Assembly: GCA_963840965.1 (NCBI GenBank)
Contig: CAWJAW010000002.1
Location: 328,185 to 392,184 of the forward strand
DNA: 64,000 bases
Direction: 5' to 3'
Source of the DNA: an uncultured Bacteroidales bacterium
Lineage (GTDB): Bacteria; Bacteroidota; Bacteroidia; Bacteroidales; VadinHA17
Shown here in pieces: positions 20,951 through 36,606 of this stretch (positions are counted from its first letter, which is position 1; each line of letters begins with the position of its first letter). Under the pieces are notes generated by a model, which saw only the letters and a list, made by a program, of their open reading frames with translations, made no database searches and had not been told where the DNA came from. Made by a program: the position numbers and the translations under genes.

Positions 20951-21841
20951 ATGAAGATCGAGATCCGTAACCTCAATATGATTTATTCAAACGGAAATCA
21001 TGCGCTTAAGGATATCGATCTTGAGATCGGAACGGGGATGTTCGGGCTTCTCGGACCGAACGGGGCAGGCAAGTCAAGCCTGATGCGAATCCTGGTGACT
21101 CTTATGAAACCAACTTCAGGAGTAGTCCTTGCCAATGGCCGCGATATCCAGACAATCCGTAAGGAGTACCGCAGCCTGCTTGGTTACCTGCCCCAGGACT
21201 TTCGCTTCTTCACCTCACTTAAAACCTGGGAATTCCTCGATTATTCGGGATCGCTTGCAGGCCTGAGGAACAGAAAGCTCAGGATTGCCGAGGTTGACAG
21301 GCTTCTTGATCAGGTCGGACTTCTGGAAGTGCGCGACCGGCAGGCAAACAGACTCTCGGGGGGGATGAAAAGAAGGCTCGGAATAGCACAGGCCCTGATA
21401 GGAAACCCGGGGATCATTGTTGTGGATGAACCAACCACCGGACTTGACCCAGATGAAAGAATAAGGTTCCGTAACATACTTTCGGAGCTTAGCCAGAATG
21501 ACGTGACAATAATCTTGTCGACACATATCGTCGGGGACATATCCTCAACCTGCCAGACAATGACATTGCTTAACCGCGGGGAGGTGGTTTTCTCAGGTTC
21601 TCCGGAAAACCTGGTTAAAAAAGCCGAAGATCATGTGTTCAGGCTTACCCTTTCGCAGCAGGAATACGACACGGTGAAGGAAAAGTACAATGTGATATCA
21701 ACCATTCCGGTCGACGGCGGCTGGGAAGTACAGATCGTTTCGGATGATCCTCCTCCTTTCAGCCATACTGCAATAATACCCAATATTGAACACTCCTATG
21801 TATATTATATGGAGCACAAACTCAAGGCTGACTTAACCTGA
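20951..21841 (+). CDS. ABC transporter ATP-binding protein (ABC-2/DrrA-like subfamily) with a C-terminal accessory domain
   Basis: Walker A GLLGPNGAGKSS, Q-loop LGYLPQD, signature LSGGMKRR, Walker B IIVVDEPTTGLD, H-loop LSTHIV. Its stop overlaps the next start (TGATG, 21839-21843). Confidence 0.92.
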   Translation: MKIEIRNLNMIYSNGNHALKDIDLEIGTGMFGLLGPNGAGKSSLMRILVTLMKPTSGVVLANGRDIQTIRKEYRSLLGYLPQDFRFFTSLKTWEFLDYSGSLAGLRNRKLRIAEVDRLLDQVGLLEVRDRQANRLSGGMKRRLGIAQALIGNPGIIVVDEPTTGLDPDERIRFRNILSELSQNDVTIILSTHIVGDISSTCQTMTLLNRGEVVFSGSPENLVKKAEDHVFRLTLSQQEYDTVKEKYNVISTIPVDGGWEVQIVSDDPPPFSHTAIIPNIEHSYVYYMEHKLKADLT

Positions 21842-24800
21842 TGGAACTCATTCACAACATAAGGACTGTGGCAAGGTACGAAGCCAGGATACTCAGGAGA
21901 AGCTGGTTCTTCAGACTGTTTTCACTTGGTGCCCTTTTCATTTTCACCATCCTCAACCTGGGACTATTCTCGCCCATTGGCGATGAGGATTGGCAGATGG
22001 TTGCATTCCCTGCATCGGTACCTCATATAAACCTTTATTTGTTGAATATCGGACAGGCCATTGTTGTGATCTTTCTTGCTTCCGACTTCCTCAAAAGAGA
22101 CAAGAAGGTTGATACCAACGAAGTCCTTTATACACGATCGATGTCGAACTTCGAGTATATAACAGGCAAAACCACCGGGGTCCTCCGGCTTTTCCTCGGC
22201 CTCGATATCATTATACTCCTTATAGGACTTCTGATGAACATAATTTCGAAGACCATGACAATCGATCTGGCTTCGTACTTCTGGTTCCTTTTAATTATTT
22301 GCATCCCGACTATCATCTTCAGCCTCGGACTTTCATTCATGCTGATGTCGCTCCTACGGAACCAGGCTATCACCTTCCTGATACTCCTTGGCATCGCGGC
22401 GCTCAATATGTTCTGGCTGAACTTCAGGTTCGGATATATCTTCGACTACATGGCATTCGGCCTCCCGGTATTCAAATCAGGCATGACAGGATTTGACAAT
22501 CCGTCGCTAATCCTGAACCAGCGGCTTACCTGGTTCTTCCTGGGGCTTTCTCTCATTCTCGCAACCATTCTGCTCTTTAAGCGTCTTCCTCAATCCAGGG
22601 TCCTTACAACGGTTTCGGCAGTCTTCATGGTTATTTTTTTCGCCTTAACCGCCTTCTGCGCATGGAATACATGGTCGGTTTACAGGACCGACCTCAACGA
22701 TAAAAGAACTGTAATCGACACCAACAGGAAATTTGAGAACAGCAGTTTTGTAAGCCTCAGCAAGGCTGAGATCGATTTCGAACATCTCGGCGATTCTTTC
22801 AGCGCTTCCGCCGACCTTCATTTCACAAACAATAACGCCCTGCCTCTCGATACTTATCTGTTTTCCCTGAATCCGGGCCTCAGTGTCGGCAGGGTAAGCT
22901 CATCTGGTAAAGATCTGAACTACAAAATGACAGGTCATATTATCGCGATCGCCCCCCCTAAACCGCTGGCCCCGGGTGAAAAAGACAGTATAAATATAAC
23001 ATGGTCAGGTAAAGTCGATGAAACATTTTGCTTTCCCGATAATCATGATAACGTGAATACTGCACCCTACAGGGTGGCGATGCTGAATGTAAATAAAAGA
23101 CAGGCCTTCCTTACTCCCGATTACGTGCTGCTTACACCGGAATCGCACTGGTACCCCGTGCCGGGACTTAACTATTACCCCTCAAACCCTGCTAGACTTA
23201 AGGTCGACTTTACTGAATTTATCTTAAAGGTTAAGACAAAGGAAGATCTTATGCCGGTTGCGCAGGGAAACATGAAAAAAGAAGGTTATAACAATGTTAT
23301 AACGTCCGATTCACCCCTCACCGGACTCTCACTTGCTATAGGAAACTACAGGTCCGACACACTTACCGTCGACTCGGTAACTTATATAACTTATTATTAT
23401 CCCGGACACGACTATTACAAAAAGGATCTGGCCGAATTAAAAGACACTCTCAGTTTTCTTGTCTCGGGAATAATGAGGGATTTAGAAACCAGTTTCTCTG
23501 CCGAATATCCGTTCAGTACACTTAAACTGGTGGAGGTCCCGGTTCAGTTCCATTCCTTTCCGCGGATGAGCACTCAGACCATGGCTGAACTTCAGCCTTC
23601 AATGGTTCTGCTCCCCGAAAAGTTGTCTATGATCGATAATGCCGGCTTCCAGAAACGTTTCACCCGGCAGAAGAACAGAAATACCAGAAACAACCAGGTG
23701 ATCACCGACAAGGAGCTGCAGGTAAGGTTGTTCAACGATTTTGCAAGGAACGCTTTCATAAGCGGAGAAAAGACCAGGTACGTTAACGGGGAAAGGCTGT
23801 CCGAGCCTGTACGCTACAGACTGGGACCGAACTTCTATTTTTTCAGGAATAATTTCCACTCAGCCGAATACCCGGTAATAAATGCTGTTTTTGAATCCCA
23901 TCTTCAGAAACATATTTCGGAAACGGCCCAGTTCAGCAGTATGTCGGGGAACCTGCAGGAAAATGACAGGGCCAACCTCGTCCTGAGAAACACCAGCTTC
24001 AGGGATGTCCTGGCCATGAATCCCAAAGGAGATACCATAAGGAACGTACTTACCCTTAAGGGCGATTACCTCTTCAACCTCTTCAGGGCGAAGGCAGGCA
24101 TCGATGAGTTCAACGACTGGTTCACCGCTTATCTCGACAGTCACCGGTACCAGAGCATCGAAGTAACTGACCTCAACGCAGACATGAAAGAAAAGTTCGG
24201 ATTTGAGTTCTATCCCTTCCTCCACGACTGGTTCAACAGCAAGGACCAGCCAGGATTTATCTTTTCAAGCCTTCAGTCCCGGGAAATTATCGTGGACGAC
24301 AGGGTAAGATTCCTTGTAACATTTACGGCATCCAATCACGAACCGGTTACCGGGATATTTAATGTGACCTTCCGGACGGCAGCAGAAGGCGGCCGCCAGA
24401 TTACCGGCTACTACGAGGGTTCAGGCCGTGGGGGAAGTTACAGTATAATGATGCAGGGCCAGGGACCCGGTTCTGATATTTCAAGAATAGTGGTGCTCGG
24501 ACCTTCAGAAGCAAAAAAAATAAGCATTATTCTGGATGCCGAACCACGCGAGATGATAGCTAACTCTCTTTTCGCGAAAAACATTCCCGGAGAAATAGTC
24601 CTCCCAATCGATAACATAGTGAAATCCAGAAATCACACCGCTTATACCGAAGGGGAAGAACTTCTTCCTTCAGTTCCTCCCCTTGAGTCGCCTGGAGAAA
24701 TAGTAGTTGACAACGAGGACCCCGGCTTCTCAACCGACAACTCCACAGTAATGAGCCCGCTGAAAAGGATTCTCGGAGTCAGGAAAAGACAGGCCGATTC

Positions 24801-25260
24801 CTATCAACCGGTCAATATGTTCTGGGCGCCGCAATTCTGGCAGGCGGGAGTGATGTCGTCCTACTACGGCAAATATATCCGGTCGTCGGTGTTTACCCGC
24901 GGTTCACGGGGTGAAAAACGTGTGACCTGGGTAACTCCTCTCATGAAAGCGGATTACTACGACATATATTGTTATATTGGAAAATCAGCCGACAGGATGG
25001 TTGTACGCTCAGGCGGAGGACCGCCGCCGCCTCCTGGTGAAACACCTCAGGGTGATAACCTGTACAAGGATTTGCACTACAGAATTTACCACGACGAAGG
25101 CACTGAAGATATTTCTATTGATTTTGGAAATGCCGAACCAGGCTGGAACCTGCTCGGCCGCTATTATATCTCATCCGATTCGGCAAGGGTGGAAATGACA
25201 AACCAGTCGGCCGGCCGTGTGGTAATAGGCGATGCCGTGAAATGGGTAAGGGCAAACTGA
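21841..25260 (+). CDS. 1139-aa membrane protein: N-terminal ABC-2-type permease-like TM domain (about 280 aa) fused to a roughly 850-aa extracytoplasmic region
   Basis: Six to seven hydrophobic helices lie in aa 20-280, then a long hydrophilic region. I found no HEXXH. A Pro5 run (GGGPPPPPGE) is present. The C-terminal approx. 190 aa (VDNEDPGFS...GRVVIGDAVKWVRAN) resemble a golvesin-C-like binding module, an assignment from memory only. Confidence 0.7.
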   Translation: MELIHNIRTVARYEARILRRSWFFRLFSLGALFIFTILNLGLFSPIGDEDWQMVAFPASVPHINLYLLNIGQAIVVIFLASDFLKRDKKVDTNEVLYTRSMSNFEYITGKTTGVLRLFLGLDIIILLIGLLMNIISKTMTIDLASYFWFLLIICIPTIIFSLGLSFMLMSLLRNQAITFLILLGIAALNMFWLNFRFGYIFDYMAFGLPVFKSGMTGFDNPSLILNQRLTWFFLGLSLILATILLFKRLPQSRVLTTVSAVFMVIFFALTAFCAWNTWSVYRTDLNDKRTVIDTNRKFENSSFVSLSKAEIDFEHLGDSFSASADLHFTNNNALPLDTYLFSLNPGLSVGRVSSSGKDLNYKMTGHIIAIAPPKPLAPGEKDSINITWSGKVDETFCFPDNHDNVNTAPYRVAMLNVNKRQAFLTPDYVLLTPESHWYPVPGLNYYPSNPARLKVDFTEFILKVKTKEDLMPVAQGNMKKEGYNNVITSDSPLTGLSLAIGNYRSDTLTVDSVTYITYYYPGHDYYKKDLAELKDTLSFLVSGIMRDLETSFSAEYPFSTLKLVEVPVQFHSFPRMSTQTMAELQPSMVLLPEKLSMIDNAGFQKRFTRQKNRNTRNNQVITDKELQVRLFNDFARNAFISGEKTRYVNGERLSEPVRYRLGPNFYFFRNNFHSAEYPVINAVFESHLQKHISETAQFSSMSGNLQENDRANLVLRNTSFRDVLAMNPKGDTIRNVLTLKGDYLFNLFRAKAGIDEFNDWFTAYLDSHRYQSIEVTDLNADMKEKFGFEFYPFLHDWFNSKDQPGFIFSSLQSREIIVDDRVRFLVTFTASNHEPVTGIFNVTFRTAAEGGRQITGYYEGSGRGGSYSIMMQGQGPGSDISRIVVLGPSEAKKISIILDAEPREMIANSLFAKNIPGEIVLPIDNIVKSRNHTAYTEGEELLPSVPPLESPGEIVVDNEDPGFSTDNSTVMSPLKRILGVRKRQADSYQPVNMFWAPQFWQAGVMSSYYGKYIRSSVFTRGSRGEKRVTWVTPLMKADYYDIYCYIGKSADRMVVRSGGGPPPPPGETPQGDNLYKDLHYRIYHDEGTEDISIDFGNAEPGWNLLGRYYISSDSARVEMTNQSAGRVVIGDAVKWVRAN

Positions 25261-25298
25261 ACTTTATATACTGTTTATTAAATGATAGTAGGGAAATT

Positions 25299-26792
25299 AT
25301 GATACAAAGGATAAAACAAGTTAAAACAACAACCAGAAAGCTGGCTTTTCTGATTGTTCTGGCAGCTTCAGGCCTGTTTTCATCAGCCCAGCAGGGACTA
25401 ACCCTTGAACAGTCACTCCAGATAGCCGAATCAAACAGCCCTGCAATGAAACGTACAAGGCTCAGCCTTATCAGGAGCCAGGAAAACCTTAATGCCCAGA
25501 ACGCCTCGCTTAAATCACAGTTCTCACTGTCGGTAAACCCAATTGGCTACAGCCAGAACAGGTCGTTCAATGAACTGATCTCCAAATGGAATTCAGTGAA
25601 AACTACCGAAAGTTTTGGCCTTTTCACCATTTCGCAACCGATAGTGTTCACCGATGCAAGGCTATCACTGACTAACAGGTTCGGATACACGGATTCGTAC
25701 AGCGAGTACAGTAATTCCACAACAAAAGGATTCAGCAACAGCCTGTCGCTTAATCTCGACCAGCCGCTCTTTACCTACAACAGGACAAAGCTCCAGCTAA
25801 GGGAACTTGAACTGGCTCTTGAAAACTCCCAGATAAGCTATGCTGTCCAGCTCCTGTCGCTCGAAAGGGGCGTCTCCCAGGCATTTTACTATGTGTACCA
25901 GCAGCAGCAGAGTTACGAGATAGCCCGTCAGGCATTCGATAATATGCAAAAGAGTTATGAAATAATAAAAAACAAGGTCGACGCAGGCATCTCAGCCCGC
26001 GAGGAAGGTTTCCAGGCTGAACTGAACCTTGCAACCGCTAGGTCTGATTATGAAAACCGTCAGGTCGATCTTGAGAATGCAAAGGATGAGTTCAAAATCC
26101 TGATCGGACTGAGCCTGTACGACGATATCATTGTGCTGCCAAATATCCAGGTCGATACGGTACAGGTTGATATTGCCCTGGCAATCGACCAGGGTCTTGC
26201 AAACAGGATGGAACTCCGCCAGCGTGAAATCGACATTGAAGCCTCACAATTTGACCTGATCCAGACAAAATCGCTGAATGAATTCAGGGGAAGCCTGGGT
26301 CTTTCAATCGGATTATTCGGCGACAATGAGAAACTGGGTGACGTCTATGCCAATCCAACTGACAACGAAGACGTCTCCCTTTCATTCAGCATTCCACTCT
26401 GGGACTGGGGAGAGAGAAAATCAAGGATAAAAGCTTCTGAGGCTGCAATAGAATCAGCAGAGATTTCACTGGATGAAGAAAAAAATGATATAATACTTGG
26501 CATCAGGAAAGTCTTCAGAAACCTTATAAATCTCAGGAACCAGATCGACATTGCCCGGCAGAATGTCACCAATGCACAACTCACCTATGACCTCAACCTT
26601 GAAAGATACAGAAACGGAGATCTTACAGGTATGGACCTGAACCTTTTCCAGGAACAGCTCTCACAAAAACAACTGTCGTACACCAATTCGCTGATCTCCT
26701 ACAAGCTCGAATTGCTTAACCTCAAGATACAAACCCTTTACGATTTTGAGAAGAATGAACAGGTTTCACCTGTAATGACACTGGAACAATAA
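25299..26792 (+). CDS. TolC-family outer membrane efflux protein
   Basis: Signal peptide (LAFLIVLAASGLFSSAQQ) and the two-repeat OMF pattern (LTLEQSLQIAESNSPAMK ... LTYDLNLERYRNGD). The ORF opens at 25242 and overlaps the upstream gene. The more likely start is ATG 25299 (MIQRIKQ). Confidence 0.85.
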   Translation: MIQRIKQVKTTTRKLAFLIVLAASGLFSSAQQGLTLEQSLQIAESNSPAMKRTRLSLIRSQENLNAQNASLKSQFSLSVNPIGYSQNRSFNELISKWNSVKTTESFGLFTISQPIVFTDARLSLTNRFGYTDSYSEYSNSTTKGFSNSLSLNLDQPLFTYNRTKLQLRELELALENSQISYAVQLLSLERGVSQAFYYVYQQQQSYEIARQAFDNMQKSYEIIKNKVDAGISAREEGFQAELNLATARSDYENRQVDLENAKDEFKILIGLSLYDDIIVLPNIQVDTVQVDIALAIDQGLANRMELRQREIDIEASQFDLIQTKSLNEFRGSLGLSIGLFGDNEKLGDVYANPTDNEDVSLSFSIPLWDWGERKSRIKASEAAIESAEISLDEEKNDIILGIRKVFRNLINLRNQIDIARQNVTNAQLTYDLNLERYRNGDLTGMDLNLFQEQLSQKQLSYTNSLISYKLELLNLKIQTLYDFEKNEQVSPVMTLEQ

Positions 26793-26808
26793 AAAAAATC
26801 AATATAAA

Positions 26809-27861
26809 ATGAAAAGAATAATAATTCTGTTTGCAGCTTCCCTCATAGCAGCTGGCGGATGCAGGAACCAGGACCAGAGCCTGACCGCCGACGTCGAAAT
26901 TCCCGTCTCCGTTCAGGACCTGAAGCTGAAACCGATAGAAGAATATGTCAATACCACAGGTACGGCATTCCCGAAAGGCGAAATTGAACTGAATTCCAAA
27001 ATCGCGGCAGACTATTTCCTGGAAAGAAATCCCAGGACAGGCAGACTCTGGCAGCTTGGCGACCGCGTCAGCAAGGGTAACGTGATAGCCCGTCTTGAGG
27101 ACCAGGAATATGTAAACTCGGTTAAGATGGAAACCAACCAGCTGAACCTGGAACTCATGGAAAGTGAACTTAAGAAACAACAGTCGCTTTATGAAAAGGG
27201 TGGCGTAACACTCAAGGAACTGAAGACTGCTGAGATCAACTACGAAAACGCCCGCACCACCGTAGTAACCGCAAGGCTACAGCTCGAAAAAACAAGTTTG
27301 ACCGCCCCTATCGACGGAGTTATTGTCGATTTACCTTATTATACCCAGGGAACCCATATTGAAGCAGGTGTTGCAATTGTAAAGATAATGGACTACCGGA
27401 CCATGTACATGGATGTCCAGCTACCTGAAAAATACATACCCGTCATCAAGCCCGGCCAGGTTGTCAGGATGACCAACTACACAATCCCCGACGATACGAT
27501 CGTCGGCAATGTAACACAGTTGTCTCCTGCCATCAATCCCGATACCAGAACCTTCAGGGGATCCATTTCCATAGATAATCCTGATATGCTGCTGCGCCCG
27601 GGAATGTTCGTCAGGGCCGATATTGTAACGAACCGGAAGGACTCTGCTATTGTTATTCCCAAAAACATTATCCTTTCGAGGCAGAGAGGAAAAACCGTAT
27701 TTGTGGTTGACAGGGGGCTGGCAGTTGAAAGAATCATAGAGACCGGCCTCGAAAATATTACCGACGTCGAGGTAACAAGGGGTCTGGAAAAAAATGAGCG
27801 CGTTGTAACAAGTGGCTTCGAAACACTGAGCAACAGGTCAAAGGTGAAAATTATCAAGTAA
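26809..27861 (+). CDS. RND efflux periplasmic adaptor (membrane fusion protein)
   Basis: Lipoprotein-like N-terminus (LIAAGGC), lipoyl-like motif GDRVSKGNVIARLED, a coiled-coil hairpin, and beta-barrel/MP domains. It sits between the TolC and RND genes. Confidence 0.88.
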   Translation: MKRIIILFAASLIAAGGCRNQDQSLTADVEIPVSVQDLKLKPIEEYVNTTGTAFPKGEIELNSKIAADYFLERNPRTGRLWQLGDRVSKGNVIARLEDQEYVNSVKMETNQLNLELMESELKKQQSLYEKGGVTLKELKTAEINYENARTTVVTARLQLEKTSLTAPIDGVIVDLPYYTQGTHIEAGVAIVKIMDYRTMYMDVQLPEKYIPVIKPGQVVRMTNYTIPDDTIVGNVTQLSPAINPDTRTFRGSISIDNPDMLLRPGMFVRADIVTNRKDSAIVIPKNIILSRQRGKTVFVVDRGLAVERIIETGLENITDVEVTRGLEKNERVVTSGFETLSNRSKVKIIK

Positions 27862-27963
27862 CTGCCATGAAACCCACATGATTGATTTCAAACGTAAACA
27901 CTTAATAAACATAAATTTCAATCATGTGCGGTTCCATCATACCTTTAAAATCAAAATAATCCA

Positions 27964-30900
27964 ATGATGAACTCCATTGCCCGATTTGCTGTAAATAACC
28001 CTGTAACGGTTCTCATGCTTGTACTGGCGATCATCCTGCTGGGATTCATTTCCTTCGGGAAGCTGGGAACCGATCTTTTCCCCGATCTCAATACTCCAAA
28101 AATATATATAGAACTCAGGGCAGGAGAGAAACCTCCTGAAGAAATCGAGAAGAACTATGTCGACCAGATTGAATCGCTGGCAATGCGGCAGAGCGATGTT
28201 GTAAGTGTTTCATCAGCCTCCCGGGGAGGAACAGCCATGATAACAGTCGAATACAGCTGGAACAAGGATATGGATGAAGCTTTCCTCGACCTTCAGAAGG
28301 AACTCAGCTCATTCAGCCAGAATTCCGACCTTGAGGATTTCACTATTTCACAGTACGATCCCAATGCCTCACCAGTGATGATTGTCGGTCTCCGGAATCC
28401 ACGTATCGAAAATATGGATGAACTGAGAAAGGTGGCTGAGAACTATGTAAGAAATGAACTCGTAAGGATTGAAGGAGTGGCTGACGTAAGGATAGCAGGA
28501 AAGGAAGAAAGCGAAGTGGTCATCGAGACCAACAAGTACCTGCTCGAATCGTTCGGACTCACCACCGAAGCCATTGCCGCCCAGATAATGAACTATAACA
28601 GGAATGTATCGGGAGGTTCCATTGTCGACATGGGTACCAAATATGTCGTTAAGGGTGTCAGCGTTCTGGAAGATACGGAAGATCTTCAGAATATAATAGT
28701 CGGATTCCTTACCCCGTCCCCGGCAGTTAGCGGGCAGTCTGCGGCAGGTCAGGTCGCTGGCCAGGCTCAGGGTAATGCCTCCGCCGGTGAAAGGGTACCT
28801 GTTTACCTCAGGGATGTGGCCAGGATTGGATATGAAAACAAGGATCCGGAAAATATAGTAACCATCAACGGCGAAAGATGCATCGGCCTGTCAATTTACA
28901 AGGAGCCAAAATTTAACACCGTCGATGTGGTAGAAAGCCTCTCAACAGCCTTTGACCAGCTCGGCAAGGCCCTACCCGGTTATGAATTTGTAAAAGTCCT
29001 CGATCAGGGAACCTATATTCAGAATTCAATAGGCGAGGTGAAAAACACCCTGCTCATCGGGATCTTCCTTGCTGTAATAGTTTTGTACGTCTTTCTGAGA
29101 AGGATTGGTGTAACCCTCGTCATAAGCCTTGCCATCCCGATCTCAATTATTGCAACCTTCAACCTTATGTATTTCAGCAATCTGACACTGAATATAATGA
29201 CGCTTGGGGGACTTGCACTGGGCGCCGGGATGCTGGTCGATAATGCAATAGTCGTGCTGGAGAACATAACCCGCAACAGGGATGAAGGACTGCCTTTGAA
29301 AGAAGCCATTATAACAGGCACAGCCCAGGTAGGCGGAGCAATCACCGCCTCCACTATCACAACCATAGTCGTGTTCCTCCCCATCGTCTACCTGAGGGAC
29401 GCCTCGAGCGAGATGTTCCGCGACCAGGCCTGGACAGTGGCTTTTGCACTGATCTCATCCCTCATCGTGGCTATGCTTGTTATACCGATGCTGGTATCAA
29501 CACTTCTGCCGTCAGAAAAGAAAAAGACTGTTCCTGTCAATGTATTGAATTTCACCGGGTACCACAAATACCTTGGCAGGATCCTCAAAAAAAGAAAACT
29601 TGTGATTCTTCTTTCAGTGATAATCCTTGGTGCAACGGGATTTCTTGTTCCGCGGCTTGGTAGCGAATTCATGCCCCGTTCCGAATCGGCCGAATTCACG
29701 GTAAGGCTCAGTCTCCCTGAAGGAACCAGCCTTGAAAGAACAAATAATACCGCCGTGAGAACGGAGGAGATTATAAATAGTCTTCTGGGAGAAAAGGTCA
29801 GACTGATCTATACCCAATCGGGCAGTGACAATACTTCATCACTGTCACTTTCTTCAGGATCGAAGGGTGAGAACAACGCCTCCCTGAAAGTAATTCTGGA
29901 GGATGAATTTGCCTCCGAAACCGAAGACGCAATCACCCTGGTACAGTCATATCTCAGCACTATCCCCGACGTTGAAGTAAGCTTCTCAAGGGAAGAAACA
30001 GCCCTCCAGTCGTCGCTTGGAACCACCGAATCGCCTTTTGCCCTCGAGATATCAGGAAAGGATTTTTCTGAAATGGAAAGGATACTGAGGGAATCGGAAG
30101 CAATACTTAAGGAAAATAATGGCCTAAGCAATATCACAACATCACTCGACGAAGGAACTCCGGAGGTGGAGGTGGAAATCGACCGGTTCAAGACAAGCTA
30201 TTATGGGGTGACGGTCGAAAACGTCATTAGTCAGGTAAGGGGTTATCTGCAGGGCGCCGCAGCCGGAACCTTCGAAAAGGATGGCGAACTTAAGGACATT
30301 ACAATCAAACTGGGCGATATCTCCCTGAGCCAGCTCAGCGACCTTATAATAACAGCAGGAAATATAAAAGTCCCCCTTAGCGAAATCGCCCGTGTAAGTA
30401 CCATAACCAGCCCGCGGGAAATCACACGCCGTAACCAGTCAAGAACCTGTTATATCTATGCAATGACAGACAAGGATCAGCCTTTTGATAAAATCATCAG
30501 GGATGCCGGGACTTCACTGCAGTCCGTGGCCCTTCCATCCGACTACAAACTGGATTTCACCGGCGAGGAACTCAAGCGGAGGGAATCAATGTCGAACCTG
30601 ACATTTGCGCTCGTCCTTTCACTTGTACTGGTGTTTATGGTACTGGCCTCACAGTTCGAATCAATATTACAGCCGTTCATAGTAATGCTGACCATACCAC
30701 TGGCAGGAGTGGGTACCGTACTAACCTTCTTCTTCCTGGGCAAGCCCCTGAATATGATGGCATACATTGGGATAATCATGCTTGCAGGGATCGCGGTGAA
30801 CAACGCTATAATCCTGATCGACCGTATAAACCAGCTCAGGGAATCGGGAACTCCTAAAAAGGATGCCATTATGCTTGCCGGAGCCCAGAGAATAAGACCT

Positions 30901-31311
30901 ATTCTCATGACAAGCATTACAACCATCCTGGCACTTCTGCCTCTTACCATCGGAATGGGCGAAAGTGCATCACTCAGGTCTCCCATGGCCCTCGCAGTGA
31001 TCGGAGGACTTTTCTCCTCCACCCTTCTTACCCTGATCGTTATACCCTGCGTCTACTGGGTATTTGACAGCTTAGGCGATTTATTGACAGGCAGGAATAA
31101 GATGAACAACCAAATGAATAATAAAGCATTAGGAAGGTATGGATTTCATTCTCAAAAGAAAGGTCCTTATCAGCATGCTCTTCATAGGGCTCTCCGTACT
31201 TGGCTATGTATCGTACAGGAAGCTGGCCGTGGAGCTGCTTCCCAATGCCGAATTCCCGACACTTATAGTACAGGTAGGCTCACCTCTCGAGGTCGATCCC
31301 TCCTACATTGA
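27964..31311 (+). CDS. RND (AcrB/HAE1-type) efflux permease 1
   Basis: Twelve-TM RND layout. Conserved TM4 is GGLALGAGMLVDNAIVVLENI and TM10 is GIIMLAGIAVNNAIILIDRINQL. The RND fold ends near VYWVFDSLG (approx. 31075). The ORF then has no stop until 31311 and overlaps the next gene by 173 nt. Confidence 0.88.
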   Translation: MMNSIARFAVNNPVTVLMLVLAIILLGFISFGKLGTDLFPDLNTPKIYIELRAGEKPPEEIEKNYVDQIESLAMRQSDVVSVSSASRGGTAMITVEYSWNKDMDEAFLDLQKELSSFSQNSDLEDFTISQYDPNASPVMIVGLRNPRIENMDELRKVAENYVRNELVRIEGVADVRIAGKEESEVVIETNKYLLESFGLTTEAIAAQIMNYNRNVSGGSIVDMGTKYVVKGVSVLEDTEDLQNIIVGFLTPSPAVSGQSAAGQVAGQAQGNASAGERVPVYLRDVARIGYENKDPENIVTINGERCIGLSIYKEPKFNTVDVVESLSTAFDQLGKALPGYEFVKVLDQGTYIQNSIGEVKNTLLIGIFLAVIVLYVFLRRIGVTLVISLAIPISIIATFNLMYFSNLTLNIMTLGGLALGAGMLVDNAIVVLENITRNRDEGLPLKEAIITGTAQVGGAITASTITTIVVFLPIVYLRDASSEMFRDQAWTVAFALISSLIVAMLVIPMLVSTLLPSEKKKTVPVNVLNFTGYHKYLGRILKKRKLVILLSVIILGATGFLVPRLGSEFMPRSESAEFTVRLSLPEGTSLERTNNTAVRTEEIINSLLGEKVRLIYTQSGSDNTSSLSLSSGSKGENNASLKVILEDEFASETEDAITLVQSYLSTIPDVEVSFSREETALQSSLGTTESPFALEISGKDFSEMERILRESEAILKENNGLSNITTSLDEGTPEVEVEIDRFKTSYYGVTVENVISQVRGYLQGAAAGTFEKDGELKDITIKLGDISLSQLSDLIITAGNIKVPLSEIARVSTITSPREITRRNQSRTCYIYAMTDKDQPFDKIIRDAGTSLQSVALPSDYKLDFTGEELKRRESMSNLTFALVLSLVLVFMVLASQFESILQPFIVMLTIPLAGVGTVLTFFFLGKPLNMMAYIGIIMLAGIAVNNAIILIDRINQLRESGTPKKDAIMLAGAQRIRPILMTSITTILALLPLTIGMGESASLRSPMALAVIGGLFSSTLLTLIVIPCVYWVFDSLGDLLTGRNKMNNQMNNKALGRYGFHSQKKGPYQHALHRALRTWLCIVQEAGRGAASQCRIPDTYSTGRLTSRGRSLLH

Positions 31312-34300
31312 AAACCAGGCCATCATCCCCATCGAAGGCGCCATCGGAACTCTCGAGGATGTGGAAAAGATAGAATCAAATATAACGTCCAGGTACGGAA
31401 CCATATTTATCTATTATGCCAAGAATGCCGATCTCAAATATGCAAACCTGAAGCTTCAGGAGAAGATAGACCTTTTAAGGAATACCATACCATCGGAATT
31501 CTTTGTAAATGTAATCAAGATTGACCTCGAACAGCTTACCAACCAGTTCATGGCTCTTCAGGTACGGGGCGAGGGAGGCGTTGACAGGATACGCAACATA
31601 ACCGACAGGGAGATCAAGCCTGAACTCGAAAATATCGACGGCATTGCAGGTGTTCAGGTTTACGGAGGCCAGGAAAACGCCATCGAGGTGCGGCTTAACA
31701 GAAGGGCATGCAAATCGCTTGGCGTGACAATGAACCAGATAAGCTCCCTGCTTAACAATAACGGGAGGGAGAAAACCTTTGCCGGCAAAGTTATCGACGG
31801 AAGCCGGGAAATGTATGTAAACATTACCTCTTCCTACACCGATGTTAAGGACCTGGGAAACATAATAGTCAAACAGGACGGGCCGGTTCTTCTCAGGGAT
31901 ATCGCTGAGATCTTTTACGGTGTCAAGGAACAGAGTACCATAAGCCGTGTAAACGGTCTCGATGAGATTACCGTCAACCTGGTAAATGACCGGCAGGCAA
32001 ACCTTATCGGGCTGTCACATACCACACTGGAAGAAATTAACAGGCTGAACAGGAAACTTGCTCCCTCAGGAGTTGAAATTACCGTCCAGTACAACAGTGC
32101 CGAAACAATGGAAAAGAACATAAACCAGATAATAAGCCTGGCTCTTACAGGAGGCTTGCTGGCCGTTCTTATCCTGTGGTTCTTTTTGCGGAACATCCGT
32201 CTTGTCACCGTCATTGCCATTTCTTTGCCCATATCCGTCTACACAGCGTTCAATTTTTTCTATGCCTTCAACATCAGCATAAACAGCCTTACCCTTGTAG
32301 GCATCGCACTGGCAATAGGCATGCTGGTCGACAATTCGGTTGTTGTGCTGGAAAACATCTACAGGCTGGCCGGGGCGGGAAAGGATCCGGAAACATCGGT
32401 CAAACAGGGGCTGAAGGAGGTAATGCGCGCTATTTTTGCTTCTACCGTTACAACCATTATCGTATTTCTCCCGTTCCTGTTCACAACCAACTTCCTGATT
32501 AAACTTATAGGGAAAAACATAAGTGTATCGATAATCTCAACACTTCTGGTTTCGCTCAGCGTGGCCCTGATGGTTATACCGATGGCGACTTTTTATCTTC
32601 TGTCCGGTAAGCCGTCCGATAATTCCGGGGTCTTCAAGAAGCTCTCCATTCACGACAGACTTATTCAGGCTTACAGCCTTGTTCTGAAAGCCTGTATGAG
32701 AAACCCTGCCGCAACAATAATAGGTACACTGGTGCTATTTTTCGCGGCACTACTGGTCAGCCTCGGGCTCAGCCTGAGCTCAGGCAATGAAGTGGAAACT
32801 TCCGAATTCAGGATGAGCGTCACAATGCCTGCCGGATCGACACTGGCAAAAACCGATGCTGTGGTTTCCGAAATAGAGTCGAGACTTGCATCAATTCCTG
32901 AAAAGGAAGATATCGTTAGCCGTATCGGGGAAGATCAGGCAACGGTTACAATCAACCTCAAGGAAGACTGGGACAAGGAAAGCAGGAGAAAACTGGCGGA
33001 GATAAAAAACGATATTTCAGAGAAGACAAAGAATATATCCTCGGCAGAAATCAGCATGGACGAGATTTCAACAAGCGGGGGGTTCACAAGCAGCAGCGAG
33101 AGTGCAGGCATGAACAACCCCGGGGCCGATTTCGAATCACTCCTCGGAATCGGATCAAAGCCGGAATCGGTAATCATAAAGGGACAGAACTTCGAGCAGA
33201 TGAAAGACCTGGCTGATGATATCAGAACATATATCAACAACCTCGAAACAGTCGACAATGCAAGGGTAAATGTTCAGGACAACACTCCGGAGGTCCGGCT
33301 GCATTTCGACATGGATTACATCGCCCGCAACGGCTATACCCTTGGCGATCTGGCATCAGCCCTTTCATCGTTCGGAAGAGAATACTCCTCCGGTGCCACC
33401 TTCCGTCAGGGAACGGAAAGCTACGACATAATGATCAAATACGCCGATACGGATTCTCTTGACAACTCTTCAGCCGAAAAAACCATTGACGACCTTAAAC
33501 GACTCGAGGTATCGGGGCAGAACGGGGCTGTGATGGAAATGGAAGAACTGGCGGATGTCATTTTCTCCTACGGCATGGGAAACATTCACCGCGAGAACCA
33601 GGAAAAAAGAGTGACCGTCACCTATAGTTACAAGGATGAAATAAAATCATCCAAGGATCTCCTCACAGGGGCTCGCGCTGAAGTTGAGTCAATTGTTTCG
33701 GGACTGAATATCCCATCGGGAATTGCAGTCGAAATAATTCAGGAAGAAGACCAGTTAAAGGAATTCTATTACCTGATTGGTATAGCTTTCCTTCTTATTT
33801 TCATGGTCCTCGCGGCAGTGTTCGAATCCCTTTCAACTCCGGTCGTTCTGCTTTTCAGCATACCCCTGGCAGCCCTCGGATCGCTGATAGCGCTAATCCT
33901 GACGGGGAACACCCTGCTGAGCGTCAACACCCTCACCGGATTCCTCATCCTCCTCGGGGTTGTGGTGAACAACGGCATAATCCTTATCGATTATACAAAT
34001 ATCCTGAGGAATAGAGGCTTCCGCCGGTCAAGAGCCCTGATGACAGCAGGAATGGCAAGGATCCGACCGATAATCATTACAGCCTCAACAACTGTCATAG
34101 CAATGCTTCCGCTGGCAATGGGAAAGGCGGAGTTTGTTTCGGTGATCGGAGCCTCATTCGCCATAACAGTTATCGGCGGACTTACACTGAGCACTTTGCT
34201 TACGCTTGTGTTTATTCCTACCTTCTACTCAGGTCTCGAAAACGCACTTGATTGGATAGGATCGCTCAACTGGAAAGTCAAGGCAGTGCAGCTGGCCATA

Positions 34301-35893
34301 TTCGGAATTCTGATATTTCTTATTTATACCCATATCGATAAGTTCATCTGGAAGCTGATCACCTCCATTCTCGTTCTGATAATCGTGCCGGCGGCAACAT
34401 GGTTCGTAATGAACAGCCTCAGAAAAGCCAGGGAAACGGTTATCCCTCCCGACGTGCCCATAAAAATCCGGGTTCAGAGTCTTGTAAAGATCTACGAAAG
34501 AGAAAACAGGTGGAGCCGCGAATGGAAGGCCGGCGCACGGATAAGGGAACGGCTCGGTCTAAAAACGCACTTCAGGAAATGGAAAGACCTGATGACCGTT
34601 TCATGGGAACTCCCCCTGTTTGCCTTTATGATTTATTTTACTTACTTCTATCTCAACTCAGGATTCTGGATATTCTTCTTCAGTGTAATTGTATGGTTTT
34701 TCCTTTCCGCCATCTGGAACCAGTTCAGGGAACTATTCAAAAACCTTTCCTCTGAATCCGGAAGGAAGATGCCTGCAAGGCTTATCCCGGTCATAAGTTT
34801 CGTAGTCTTCTGGATGGTGCCCCTGCTGAACCTGTTTATGTTCCAGCTGAAATGGGACAACATCGCGGTTGTAATTATTATTGGCGTCCTCTGGTTCACC
34901 GGGCTGTTCATCTACACTACCGGACAAAAACTGAGTGAGGAAAATATCGATATATACCGGCTCGAAGGGAAATTCAGGGGACTGAGAAAAACAATCTACA
35001 AAATTGTCGCTGCAGTTCCGATGATCGGCAAGAAGCTTAAGCCTTTCAAGGCCCTGAGCTGTGTATCTCTCAACATAGAAAACGGAATGTTCGGACTGCT
35101 CGGACCAAACGGTGCCGGAAAAACAACCCTCATGAGAATTATTTGCGGGATCCTTGAGCAGAGCTACGGAAAGGTCTGGATCAACGGACTCGACACCCAG
35201 CTGAAGCGCGAGGAGCTTCAGGGCCTCATAGGCTACCTTCCCCAGGAATTCGGAAGCTATGAGAACATGACCGCCCACGAATACCTCCATTACCAGGCTA
35301 TGCTGAAGAACATCATCGATTCAGAAACCAGGGAAGACAGGGTGACTTACGTGCTGAAAGCAGTCCACATGGATGAACACAGGCATGAACGGATAGGTTC
35401 ATTCTCGGGAGGGATGAAGCAAAGGATGGGAATAGCGATGATACTCCTTCATCTGCCCAGAATACTTGTTGTCGATGAACCTACAGCCGGACTTGACCCC
35501 AGGGAAAGAATAAGATTCAGGAACCTGCTTGTGGAACTGAGCCGCGAAAGGATAGTTATCTTCTCCACTCACATCATCGAAGATATCTCAAGCTCGTGCA
35601 ACCAGGTTGCAGTTCTCAACAAAGGCAGGCTGAGATATCTTGGAAAACCCTCTGATATGACCAAAGAGGCCGTTGGACGAGTCTGGCAGTTTAAGATCCC
35701 TGCCTCCGAATTTACAAAAATGGCAGCCAGCCATCTCGTTGTCCATCATATGTCGGAAGGCGACAGTATAAGAGTTAGGGTCATTTCGGAATCACAACCC
35801 TGGGCTTACGCAGTGACCACAGCCCCCAACCTGGAGGATGCATACCTGTGGCTTCTAAGGAGAAAAGATATCAACCATATTAACGGAATATGA
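31139..35893 (+). CDS. RND (AcrB-type) permease 2 fused in frame to extra TM helices and a complete ABC ATPase domain (1584 aa)
   Basis: RND part aa 1 to approx. 1035 (TM4 GIALAIGMLVDNSVVVLENI, TM10 GFLILLGVVVNNGIILIDYTNIL). Two TM helices (nt approx. 34265-34414). ABC strand IKIRVQSLVKIYEREN (34460-34504). Four-TM insertion (approx. 34505-35038). Walker A GPNGAGKTT (35102-35128), Q-loop YLPQE, signature FSGGMKQR, Walker B LVVDEPTAGLD, H-loop FSTHII. No stop codon anywhere in the ORF. Confidence 0.85.
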   Translation: MDFILKRKVLISMLFIGLSVLGYVSYRKLAVELLPNAEFPTLIVQVGSPLEVDPSYIENQAIIPIEGAIGTLEDVEKIESNITSRYGTIFIYYAKNADLKYANLKLQEKIDLLRNTIPSEFFVNVIKIDLEQLTNQFMALQVRGEGGVDRIRNITDREIKPELENIDGIAGVQVYGGQENAIEVRLNRRACKSLGVTMNQISSLLNNNGREKTFAGKVIDGSREMYVNITSSYTDVKDLGNIIVKQDGPVLLRDIAEIFYGVKEQSTISRVNGLDEITVNLVNDRQANLIGLSHTTLEEINRLNRKLAPSGVEITVQYNSAETMEKNINQIISLALTGGLLAVLILWFFLRNIRLVTVIAISLPISVYTAFNFFYAFNISINSLTLVGIALAIGMLVDNSVVVLENIYRLAGAGKDPETSVKQGLKEVMRAIFASTVTTIIVFLPFLFTTNFLIKLIGKNISVSIISTLLVSLSVALMVIPMATFYLLSGKPSDNSGVFKKLSIHDRLIQAYSLVLKACMRNPAATIIGTLVLFFAALLVSLGLSLSSGNEVETSEFRMSVTMPAGSTLAKTDAVVSEIESRLASIPEKEDIVSRIGEDQATVTINLKEDWDKESRRKLAEIKNDISEKTKNISSAEISMDEISTSGGFTSSSESAGMNNPGADFESLLGIGSKPESVIIKGQNFEQMKDLADDIRTYINNLETVDNARVNVQDNTPEVRLHFDMDYIARNGYTLGDLASALSSFGREYSSGATFRQGTESYDIMIKYADTDSLDNSSAEKTIDDLKRLEVSGQNGAVMEMEELADVIFSYGMGNIHRENQEKRVTVTYSYKDEIKSSKDLLTGARAEVESIVSGLNIPSGIAVEIIQEEDQLKEFYYLIGIAFLLIFMVLAAVFESLSTPVVLLFSIPLAALGSLIALILTGNTLLSVNTLTGFLILLGVVVNNGIILIDYTNILRNRGFRRSRALMTAGMARIRPIIITASTTVIAMLPLAMGKAEFVSVIGASFAITVIGGLTLSTLLTLVFIPTFYSGLENALDWIGSLNWKVKAVQLAIFGILIFLIYTHIDKFIWKLITSILVLIIVPAATWFVMNSLRKARETVIPPDVPIKIRVQSLVKIYERENRWSREWKAGARIRERLGLKTHFRKWKDLMTVSWELPLFAFMIYFTYFYLNSGFWIFFFSVIVWFFLSAIWNQFRELFKNLSSESGRKMPARLIPVISFVVFWMVPLLNLFMFQLKWDNIAVVIIIGVLWFTGLFIYTTGQKLSEENIDIYRLEGKFRGLRKTIYKIVAAVPMIGKKLKPFKALSCVSLNIENGMFGLLGPNGAGKTTLMRIICGILEQSYGKVWINGLDTQLKREELQGLIGYLPQEFGSYENMTAHEYLHYQAMLKNIIDSETREDRVTYVLKAVHMDEHRHERIGSFSGGMKQRMGIAMILLHLPRILVVDEPTAGLDPRERIRFRNLLVELSRERIVIFSTHIIEDISSSCNQVAVLNKGRLRYLGKPSDMTKEAVGRVWQFKIPASEFTKMAASHLVVHHMSEGDSIRVRVISESQPWAYAVTTAPNLEDAYLWLLRRKDINHINGI

Positions 35894-36606
35894 ACCCGGT
35901 CACAATTAGAAATTATTACACGCTCATCATCAGGATGATACTTTATAACCTCCGGATCATCTTCGCCAATAAGTTTATCTGGTTCCTGGCAGGATCGGTT
36001 GTTTTCTACCTCGGATTATCGGTTATATACGTTCTGTCACAAGACGTTTCGGCGATGCACGATCTTTACGGGGTATTTATGTTCTCCGGCATTCTCCTCG
36101 TATTCTACCCGGTTGTTTTCGGCATCCAGAACGATCAGGATGCCCGAACCATCGAGATCCTTTTCGGCATACCAAACTACAGGTACAAGGTGTGGCTCGT
36201 AAGGATCATTCTTATTTTTGTGATAGCCTTCCTTATCATGCTTTTCTTTACCTTCCTTTCAAATATCCTTATTGTAAAGTTCGAGTTCGTTTATGTCACC
36301 ATTCAGGTTATGATACCTGTACTGTTCCTGGGAATGATGTCATTCATGCTGTCGACGGTAGTAAGGAACGGAAACGGAACTGCAGTGATTATGATCATAC
36401 TGGGAATCCTCTTTCTGTTCTTTGATGATGTGCTTCGGAAAAGCCAGTGGAACATATTCCTGAATCCGTTCAATCCGGCCTGGGATGTGAGTGAGACCAC
36501 CTGGGCCATCATCTCCCTCAAAAACCGGATCATACTCATCGCAGGCAGCATACTGTTCCTGCTCGCCGGCCTGTACAATCTCCAGAAGAGGGAAAAATTC
36601 ATGTAG
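35890..36606 (+). CDS. ABC-2-type permease-like membrane protein (238 aa, about 6 TM)
   Basis: Its start overlaps the upstream stop (ATGA, 35890-35893). It has six hydrophobic helices and an ABC-2-like DQDARTIEILFGIP motif after TM2. Confidence 0.75.
   Translation: MNPVTIRNYYTLIIRMILYNLRIIFANKFIWFLAGSVVFYLGLSVIYVLSQDVSAMHDLYGVFMFSGILLVFYPVVFGIQNDQDARTIEILFGIPNYRYKVWLVRIILIFVIAFLIMLFFTFLSNILIVKFEFVYVTIQVMIPVLFLGMMSFMLSTVVRNGNGTAVIMIILGILFLFFDDVLRKSQWNIFLNPFNPAWDVSETTWAIISLKNRIILIAGSILFLLAGLYNLQKREKFM

Follow-up and report, generated by a model that had tools for sequence, protein, structure and literature searches.

A conserved gene cluster with an RND permease covalently fused to an ABC ATPase, a candidate composite export machine of the cell envelope

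The stretch of DNA analysed here (hereafter the window, 64,000 nucleotides of an uncultured Bacteroidales bacterium) carries a cluster of seven genes, g1 to g7, in which a complete resistance-nodulation-division (RND) permease runs on in frame into an ATP-binding cassette (ABC) ATPase. All seven genes lie on the plus strand, in an order proposed in an earlier note on this DNA and borne out here: a free ABC ATPase (g1, 20951‒21841), a membrane protein of 1139 aa (g2, 21841‒25260), a TolC-like outer-membrane factor (g3, probably 25299‒26792), an RND-type adaptor (g4, 26809‒27861), a first RND permease (RND1, g5, 27964‒31311), the fusion of a second RND permease with an ATPase (RND2-ABC, g6, 31139‒35893), and a 238-aa protein (g7, 35890‒36606). 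We tentatively read this conserved gene set as encoding a composite envelope-spanning export machine that would work in two stages, a reading to which we give somewhat less than even odds.

The RND-ATPase fusion and its conservation

The RND part of g6 (residues 1‒1034, 12 transmembrane (TM) helices, nucleotides 31139‒34240) matches the Pfam family ACR_tran over residues 2‒1031 (E 9.8e-166) and spans profile positions 3‒1018 of 1021 (E 1e-165). It is followed by a linker (34241‒35044), delimited from the structural model and the motif of the first ATPase strand (beta-1), and by the remaining part of the ATPase with a C-terminal domain (35045‒35893; ABC_tran at residues 1309‒1450, E 3.4e-27). 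An AlphaFold2 (AF2) model of the last 550 residues, based on a 34-sequence alignment, reached a predicted local distance difference test score (pLDDT) of 85.9 and a predicted template modelling score (pTM) of 0.71. The elements predicted within these 550 residues are helices 11‒31 and 35‒64, a strand at 76‒85, and helices 123‒137, 141‒173, 177‒205 and 208‒233. Past TM12 of the RND part, the chain passes through two extra TM helices (34271‒34432), the beta-strand IKIRVQSLVKIY (34466‒34495), an amphipathic helix and four further TM helices (together 34607‒34939), the rest of the ATPase and the C-terminal domain. The strand corresponds to the first strand of ABC ATPases, the g1 counterpart of which is MKIEIRNLNMIY, and in the model the fused ATPase domain is split by the four-helix membrane insert. 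Since TM12 of the RND part ends in the cytoplasm and the numbers of added helices are even, two before beta-1 and four after it, all ATPase segments would be cytoplasmic.

The fused ATPase has its Walker A motif at residue 1322, Walker B (ILVVDEP) at 1442 and the catalytic glutamate at E1447. Every catalytic motif of the ATPase (Walker A, Q-loop, signature, Walker B and H-loop) is preserved in g1 and g6, and the motifs are likewise preserved in fusions from genomes of 35‒70% GC. The top Foldseek matches of the soluble part of g6 are TM_1403 (4yer), NosF of NosDFY, LptB and the ABCA family. The free and the fused ATPase, described in the earlier note as paralogues, share 39% identity along 273 aa that take in the C-terminal accessory domain (E 4e-67), which agrees with that description.

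The 120 best matches of g6 are cluster representatives of 1540‒1604 aa, all of which contain both ACR_tran and ABC_tran, and the full-length fusion (1567‒1604 aa) is carried by more than 120 clusters. Fusions of this type came from four independent assembly sources (NCBI, JGI, ENA and Logan), and Latescibacterota records fall within one of the fusion clusters. An exhaustive search of 50%-identity cluster representatives, for which the query was the g6 linker and ATPase only (550 aa), added about 35 fusion representatives and extended the family down to 32% identity; about 29 of them are long (1550‒1601 aa) and six are short (1389‒1451 aa) and lack the membrane insert. Judged from these sequences, the RND2-ATPase fusion is genuine and not an assembly error.

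Stand-alone proteins composed of the linker and the ATPase were also considered as a free-living ancestor of the fused part and were rejected. The one that was examined, P0308 (539 aa), comes immediately behind a truncated ACR_tran gene, with which it shares an overlap, at 300‒3433 of L095, a contig covered 2x, and it is probably a frameshifted fusion rather than an independent gene.

Gene order was followed in a one-genome-per-species collection, which was scanned with the beta-1 motif I[KRV][IV][RQY][NSR]LVKIY derived from a 5-sequence alignment. The motif matched 346 stretches, of which 326 were confirmed, and the locus figures below refer to the best 80. The window proteins were compared with these 80 loci by tblastn as eight segments, namely the C-terminal part of g2, TolC, the adaptor, RND1, RND2, the linker, the ATPase and g7. 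All eight were colinear on one strand at 54 loci, the remaining 26 were colinear but cut by contig ends, and none was rearranged. In this check for homologous loci with separate ABC and RND parts, the two were linked at 80 of 80 loci. Synteny thus supports the proposal in the earlier note that two ABC modules, a TolC, an adaptor and a double RND, with one RND covalently fused, form a single conserved unit. Six loci with more upstream sequence (L001‒L006) include g1 as well.

By their labels, 79 of the 80 loci belong to Bacteroidota (Bacteroidales, 'Rikenellaceae', Marinilabiliaceae and similar) and one to Chloroflexota, and all are metagenome-assembled genomes (MAGs). The locus binned as Chloroflexota (L045, JBLNAO010000361.1) carries a Bacteroidales-type cluster at 64‒85% identity and was probably misbinned, a transfer being less likely.

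A contig of Acidobacteriota (UBA4820) with 70% GC encodes, in the same order, an ABC protein of 295 aa, a Golvesin_C protein of 1136 aa, an adaptor, RND1, an RND2::ABC fusion of 1568 aa and a protein of 246 aa. No outer-membrane (TolC) gene is present in this cluster, and its fusion is about 34% identical to that of the window across the linker and ATPase. Among the sequences collected here, the smallest recurrent unit is the RND::ATPase fusion together with an ABC-2 permease.

Partners of the fusion

The unfused permease RND1 is HAE1-like. It matches ACR_tran over residues 5‒1034 (E 5.2e-218) and spans profile positions 1‒1020 of 1021 (E 5e-218). Neither g5 nor g6 is a member of the curated NCBIfam RND subfamilies (RND_permease_1 and _2, MdtB, MdtC and AcrB), with 567 bits for g5 and 456 bits for g6 against a cut-off of 1250, and both are far under the cut-offs of all NCBIfam RND equivalog models. 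The best match of RND2 among solved structures is MdtB (PDB 9lyq, 5e-65).

To follow the proton relay, 61 RND1 and 71 RND2 sequences were aligned with E. coli AcrB, MdtB and MdtC, and AcrB numbering is used for D407, D408, K940, R971 and T978. AcrB, MdtB and MdtC have an Asp-Asp-Lys relay, in which D408 and K940 are each essential in AcrB. In the present families, Asp-Asn and Asn are found instead: Asn occupies position 408 in 58 of 61 RND1 and 70 of 71 RND2 sequences, and position 940 in 56 of 61 RND1 and 70 of 71 RND2 sequences. The distant fusions L090, L091 and L092 have Asn at both positions as well. The relay positions of the window proteins are D426, N427 (for D408), N946 (for K940) and R978 in g5, and D398, N399, N944 and R976 in g6. 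By alignment, the relay is non-canonical in the fused and the unfused RND paralogue alike, and a canonical Asp-Asp-Lys relay is found in neither. D407, R971 and T978 are invariant in the 61 RND1 and 71 RND2 sequences, which is compatible with proton coupling. The system had been called a classical RND system, and it does comprise RND, adaptor and TolC parts; with D408 and K940 replaced, the RND proteins themselves are not fully classical.

The two RND genes share one adaptor gene. The adaptor g4 (350 aa) is a membrane fusion protein (MFP) of the RND subfamily, scoring 196 bits with TIGR01730 RND_mfp against a cut-off of 94.9 and matching HlyD_D23 as well, and it is a lipoprotein by its N-terminal sequence (lipobox AAGG-C18). 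The TolC-like protein g3 has a signal peptide and matches Pfam OEP with two repeats (E 5.7e-44; 150.6 bits against a cut-off of 22).

The free ATPase g1 (296 aa; Pfam ABC_tran, E 2.6e-29) is an ABC-2-type, DrrA/GldA-like protein that has an accessory domain at its C-terminus. From the N-terminus, its motifs are Walker A (residue 35), the Q-loop GYLPQ (78), LSGGM (135), Walker B IIVVDEP (155) and the H-loop (189). The protein is under the NCBIfam cut-offs for both of its best matches, drrA (182 bits) and GldA (181 bits, cut-off 402.6). Neither g2 nor g7 matches GldF or GldG in NCBIfam or belongs to any NCBIfam family, and none of the seven proteins matches FtsX or MacB_PCD, the marks of a MacB-type engine.

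The adjoining g2 begins with an ABC-2-like membrane domain (residues 1‒297, nucleotides 21841‒22731), which has seven helices by hydropathy and DSSP. It continues with a region resembling M1 aminopeptidases (about residues 300‒800, nucleotides 22738‒24240), suggested by Foldseek and weak Pfam matches, and a beta-sandwich (about residues 806‒957), and ends in a Golvesin_C domain (residues 1069‒1136, nucleotides 25045‒25248). Because the N-terminal part has seven TM helices, the large C-terminal region would be periplasmic. Golvesin_C is the sole significant Pfam match of the window g2. Among 32 members of the g2 family, on which the domain and motif counts are based, Golvesin_C is found in all, a weak match to Peptidase_M1, at the end of the M1 catalytic domain, in 16 (best E 0.0011), and weak matches to ABC2_membrane_2 or _4 in five. 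The 50 best PDB matches listed by Foldseek are all M1 aminopeptidases (E about 1e-10, probability 1.00), with TM-scores of 0.14‒0.36 on a poor model. A profile search of the PDB placed the M1 enzyme 3cia on top for the same segment (E 0.77), and a single-sequence search of the PDB gave no match. A regular-expression search found the zinc aminopeptidase motifs HExxH and GxMEN in none of the 32 relatives. The M1-like region is probably a binding module devoid of peptidase chemistry, as far as the predicted fold and the motifs indicate.

The last gene product, g7, has six hydrophobic segments and, going by family-level Pfam matches, is a putative divergent ABC-2 permease of 6 TM helices. The window protein itself matches ABC2_membrane_4 only at E 0.087; among 18 family members, six match ABC2_membrane_2 (best 1e-8), three ABC2_membrane_3 and three ABC2_membrane_4. 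The motif R86-T87-x-E89 is invariant in the family. An hhalign comparison of g7 69‒178 with g2 74‒192 found a common (D/R)-T-x-E-(I/V)-L motif after TM2, which is a weak similarity (E 0.044, probability 1.2%), and a profile search of the PDB with the g7 family gave only chance-level matches to MscS. The designation of g2 as giant ABC-2-like and of g7 as a small ABC-2 permease is thus backed by weak family-level signals and by nothing stronger. We presume that g7 is the partner of the fused ATPase.

Gene junctions, a probable mobile element and the surroundings

The earlier note had derived translational coupling throughout the cluster from overlaps and short gaps. The overlapping TGATG at the g1/g2 junction (21839‒21843) and ATGA at the g6/g7 junction (35890‒35893) are present, as is the 16-nt gap between g3 and g4 (26793‒26808); only at g1/g2 and g6/g7 does a start truly overlap the preceding gene. 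An overlap of g2 and g3 (25242‒25260) is unlikely. The g3 open reading frame (ORF) opens at 25242, but the TolC proteins of relatives are 494‒498 aa long, which fits a start at 25299 (M20). This start gives a protein of 497 aa and a gap of 38 nt after g2, and the same gap is seen in L003.

The 173-nt overlap of RND1 and RND2 is not a feature of the system but the product of one extra T in the window. In a junction alignment, the 3′ end of RND1 reads GCATTAGGAAGG in the window and GCA-TAGGAAGG in relatives; in a wider view, the window has AAAGCATTAGGAAGGTATG where relatives with 87‒95% identity have AAAGCA-TAGGAAGGCATG. The extra T, at 31129 or 31130, deletes the RND1 stop codon TAG, so that the conserved body (27964‒31128, 1055 aa) is extended by a read-through tail (31129‒31308) of 59 aa, which is out of frame, overlaps RND2 and is missing from relatives. 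RND1 of relatives is 1036‒1056 aa long, and at 70 loci RND2 starts 8‒63 nt past the last aligned RND1 codon with no overlap. The extra T may be either a true mutation or a homopolymer sequencing error.

The 102-nt gap between the MFP and RND1 genes exists in the window, and it is a lineage-specific insertion of about 100 nt rather than an operon feature. Relatives in which MFP and RND1 are 87‒97% identical have a gap of 5 nt instead. The insertion (27867‒27966, plus strand) is missing from L001, L003 and L005, and L010 has the 5-nt spacing of those loci. Within it, at 27875‒27928, CACATGATTGA and TCAATCATGTG make up a perfect inverted repeat of 11 bp. The insertion directly follows the old start ATGAA and closes with ATGATGAA, by which the RND1 start is restored; what is left upstream is a four-codon ORF (MKPT, then a stop) plus a hairpin (dG -19.9, z -4.5).

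The inverted-repeat pattern occurs on at least 120 metagenome contigs with unrelated flanks, while an exact search with 27 nt of the insertion found none in the metagenomes. Of 98 copies that could be oriented, 92 have ATGAA immediately to the left, and in 76 an ORF of 80 codons or more begins at the terminal ATG of the element, the end of which is GATGAA. The insertion seems to be mobile, landing on ATGAA start codons and supplying the start anew. With ATGAA as its target, it may be a miniature inverted-repeat transposable element (MITE) of the IS200/IS605 type. Neither the insertion nor any other part of the cluster is matched in Rfam.

A scan for sigma-70 promoters and terminators gave results near the shuffled expectation, and the sigma-70 consensus is not valid for promoters of Bacteroidota. 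The -7 motif of that phylum, TAnnTTTG, was not found in any intergenic spacer of the cluster. We infer that the seven genes lie on a single transcript.

Divergent to the cluster and adjoining g1, an HD-domain gene is followed by lpxD, lpxC-fabZ and lpxA of lipid A synthesis (16216‒20756, minus strand; Pfam). The same arrangement beside g1 is found in L087, L088 and L089, which are Bacteroidales with 61‒63% identity in g2, and not at the Acidobacteriota locus, and the downstream neighbours of the cluster vary between genomes. The lpx adjacency is a weak hint at function. A DUF4140/DUF4139 protein (13125‒14750, plus strand) is encoded upstream of the lpx genes and occupies the same position in L087‒L089. 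Farther away, a 2477-aa ORF (43258‒50691, minus strand) encodes SprA/Sov, the outer-membrane translocon of the type IX secretion system (TIGR04189, 2707 bits), which agrees with the Bacteroidota origin of the window. A tRNA gene (59431‒59502, plus strand, 66.8 bits) is the sole Rfam match in the window. The region 8001‒14000 has a G+C content of 0.38‒0.42, against about 0.47 elsewhere in the window, and a positive AT skew.

A proposed two-stage export, its alternatives and its meaning

We propose that g1 would form an ABC-2 module with g2, and the RND2-fused ATPase another with g7. RND1 and RND2 would assemble into an MdtBC-like heterotrimer, in favour of which we count the best structural match to MdtB and the single adaptor gene for two RND proteins. 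With one RND1 and two RND2 protomers, the trimer would supply exactly two ATPase domains for one (g7)2 ABC-2 unit. The ABC-2 modules would spend ATP to extract or flip a cell-made amphipathic molecule, resembling a glycolipid or a lipopeptide, so that it passes from the cytoplasmic side to the periplasmic face of the inner membrane. At that face the RND trimer held by the tether would capture the molecule and, powered by the proton gradient via a single-Asp relay (D407, R971 and T978), expel it through the adaptor and TolC. The periplasmic part of g2, with its dead M1 fold and a Golvesin_C domain for which carbohydrate binding is assumed, may bind or present the substrate or a cell-envelope polymer. 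The tether would fix the proximity of the two engines and possibly the 1:2 ratio of RND1 to RND2.

This two-stage reading fits what is generally known of ABC-2 exporters, RND pumps and two-step relays. ABC-2 exporters typically move lipid-linked or amphipathic products, and RND pumps draw their substrates from the periplasm or the outer leaflet. In known relays, enterobactin is passed by EntS and then AcrB, AcrD or MdtABC with TolC, and pyoverdine by PvdE and then PvdRT-OpmQ. The proposed logic is the same, but in those relays the steps are separate proteins usually encoded apart, whereas here they would be covalently joined and co-encoded.

Several observations weigh against the two-stage reading. 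D408 and K940 have given way to Asn in nearly all members, which leaves proton drive uncertain. A 1:2 stoichiometry is purely conjectural, as are the contact of g1 and g2 with the RND complex and any substrate. Neither promoters nor terminators could be assigned from the sequence. The AF2 model of the whole g2 protein is poor (pLDDT 54.6). No biosynthetic genes are consistently adjacent, and the lpx link is confined to four related Bacteroidales genomes. In L090, the fusion is accompanied by an overlapping 243-aa ABC2_membrane_2 permease alone, with no adaptor or outer-membrane gene within 10 kb on each side; L092 is a lone short-form fusion, with no adaptor or outer-membrane gene nearby on a contig that extends only 600 bp upstream. 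The fused unit may therefore also act outside a tripartite pump.

Fusions with no adaptor or TolC gene nearby are also what one might see if the cluster held an ordinary RND tripartite pump and two ABC-2 exporters working independently, with operon and fusion serving co-regulation only, for example in a stress or detoxification island. Each component type is common alone, and automated annotations name multidrug efflux components. However, a neutral fusion is not expected to keep its linker at 30‒50% identity across genomes of 35‒70% GC, and two phyla retain the full order of six or seven genes, with start-stop overlaps of g1/g2 and g6/g7 in many members. We consider independent transporters unlikely.

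A somewhat less probable alternative assigns the machine to envelope biogenesis, where it would handle lipid A, lipopolysaccharide (LPS) or another outer-membrane or surface component while the g2 periplasmic domain acts on or binds the cell-wall or glycan layer; such a role is not exclusive of a two-stage exporter. It is suggested by the HD-lpx operon, which adjoins the cluster in the window and in L087‒L089 even though their downstream neighbours differ, and by Golvesin_C in 32 of 32 g2 relatives, if this domain binds carbohydrate as assumed. The lpx adjacency may, however, be synteny inherited within one order, and it is missing in Acidobacteriota. The loci are all from MAGs with no genus name, apart from one titled Rikenella microfusus, which is also a MAG, and this argues against an essential general role.

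We give a similarly low weight to an ATP-coupled or ATP-gated RND pump, in which the ATPase dimer and g7 would carry no substrate and would pass ATP-driven movements to the RND membrane domain or the adaptor. These movements would replace or gate the degenerate proton relay, in the way that FtsEX, LolCDE and NosDFY pass force to periplasmic partners. The covalent tether is kept across phyla, the RND and ABC membrane domains could meet at the six extra TM helices, NosF ranks among the nearest structures, and the replacement of D408 and K940 by Asn is near-universal, distant fusions included. However, the unfused RND1 has the same substitutions, which are therefore not specific to the fused protomer, and D407, R971 and T978 are invariant, as expected with continued proton use. 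Moreover, g7 would be a full 6-TM ABC-2 permease and looks transport-competent. Slightly more doubtful still is a hybrid of primary and secondary pump, in which one RND1 and two RND2 protomers on a (g7)2 core would couple ATP hydrolysis mechanically, via the six extra helices, to an RND cycle that lacks the Asp-Asp-Lys relay.

A missed stop or frameshift joining separate RND and ABC genes, for which one could cite the frameshifting extra base at the nearby RND1 stop in the window and the stand-alone database versions that are in some cases frameshift products (P0308), is rejected as vanishingly improbable, since the same uninterrupted fusion frame is found in more than 120 clusters drawn from four assembly sources and at 80 genome loci.

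Viewed against known systems, the cluster resembles MdtABC-TolC of E. coli and MuxABC-OpmB in having two RND genes side by side, a single adaptor and a TolC-family channel. There is no ABC protein in those pumps, whereas one RND here carries six extra TM helices and an ATPase. With MacAB-TolC, DevBCA-HgdD and PvdRT-OpmQ it shares an ATPase, an adaptor and a TolC-family channel. The MacB engine, however, is a type VII ABC protein with an N-terminal ATPase, a 4-TM FtsX domain and a periplasmic domain, while the ATPases here are of the ABC-2 type and the adaptor is of the RND subfamily (TIGR01730). The type V systems NosDFY, DrrAB, GldAFG, Wzm/Wzt and ABCA have in common with it the ATPase fold with a C-terminal regulatory-type domain and 6-TM permeases of about 240 aa, and NosY with NosD is a permease tied to a large periplasmic domain, like g2. 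They differ in that the ATPase here is fused to an RND permease and split by a 4-TM insert, and that a NosD, GldG or Wzt-type partner is absent. For g2 at about residues 300‒800, the 50 best PDB matches listed for the predicted fold are all of the M1 aminopeptidase family, to which APN, ERAP1, IRAP and the Deinococcus two-domain M1 enzyme belong, but g2 has no HExxH or GxMEN and is anchored to a 7-TM ABC-2-like domain, with Golvesin_C following.

Full-text literature, in a coverage that leaves out most subscription journals, contained no description of an RND-ABC fusion, an ABC-2/M1 fusion, a Golvesin-ABC protein or this gene set. Database records have automated names only ('efflux RND transporter permease subunit', 'ABC transporter ATP-binding protein', 'hypothetical protein'). 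Each part is of a familiar kind. What appears to be new is that they are combined covalently and obligately, that the ATPase domain is split, and that a permease carries a dead M1 fold.

RND proteins, as proton-driven trimers, and ABC proteins, as ATP-driven dimers, are taught as alternative engines of tripartite efflux. A conserved fusion of the two, with source labels from Bacteroidota, Latescibacterota and Acidobacteriota, poses questions on stoichiometry, energy coupling and substrate hand-off that are open to structural biology. The cluster also gives a conserved context to two families with no known function, the ABC-2/dead-M1 permeases and the ABC ATPase domains split by a membrane insert. 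If an ATP-driven RND were true, it would be a new mode of energy coupling for the RND superfamily. If the two-step relay is true, the cluster would encode the first hard-wired two-step export path, of a kind so far inferred only genetically.

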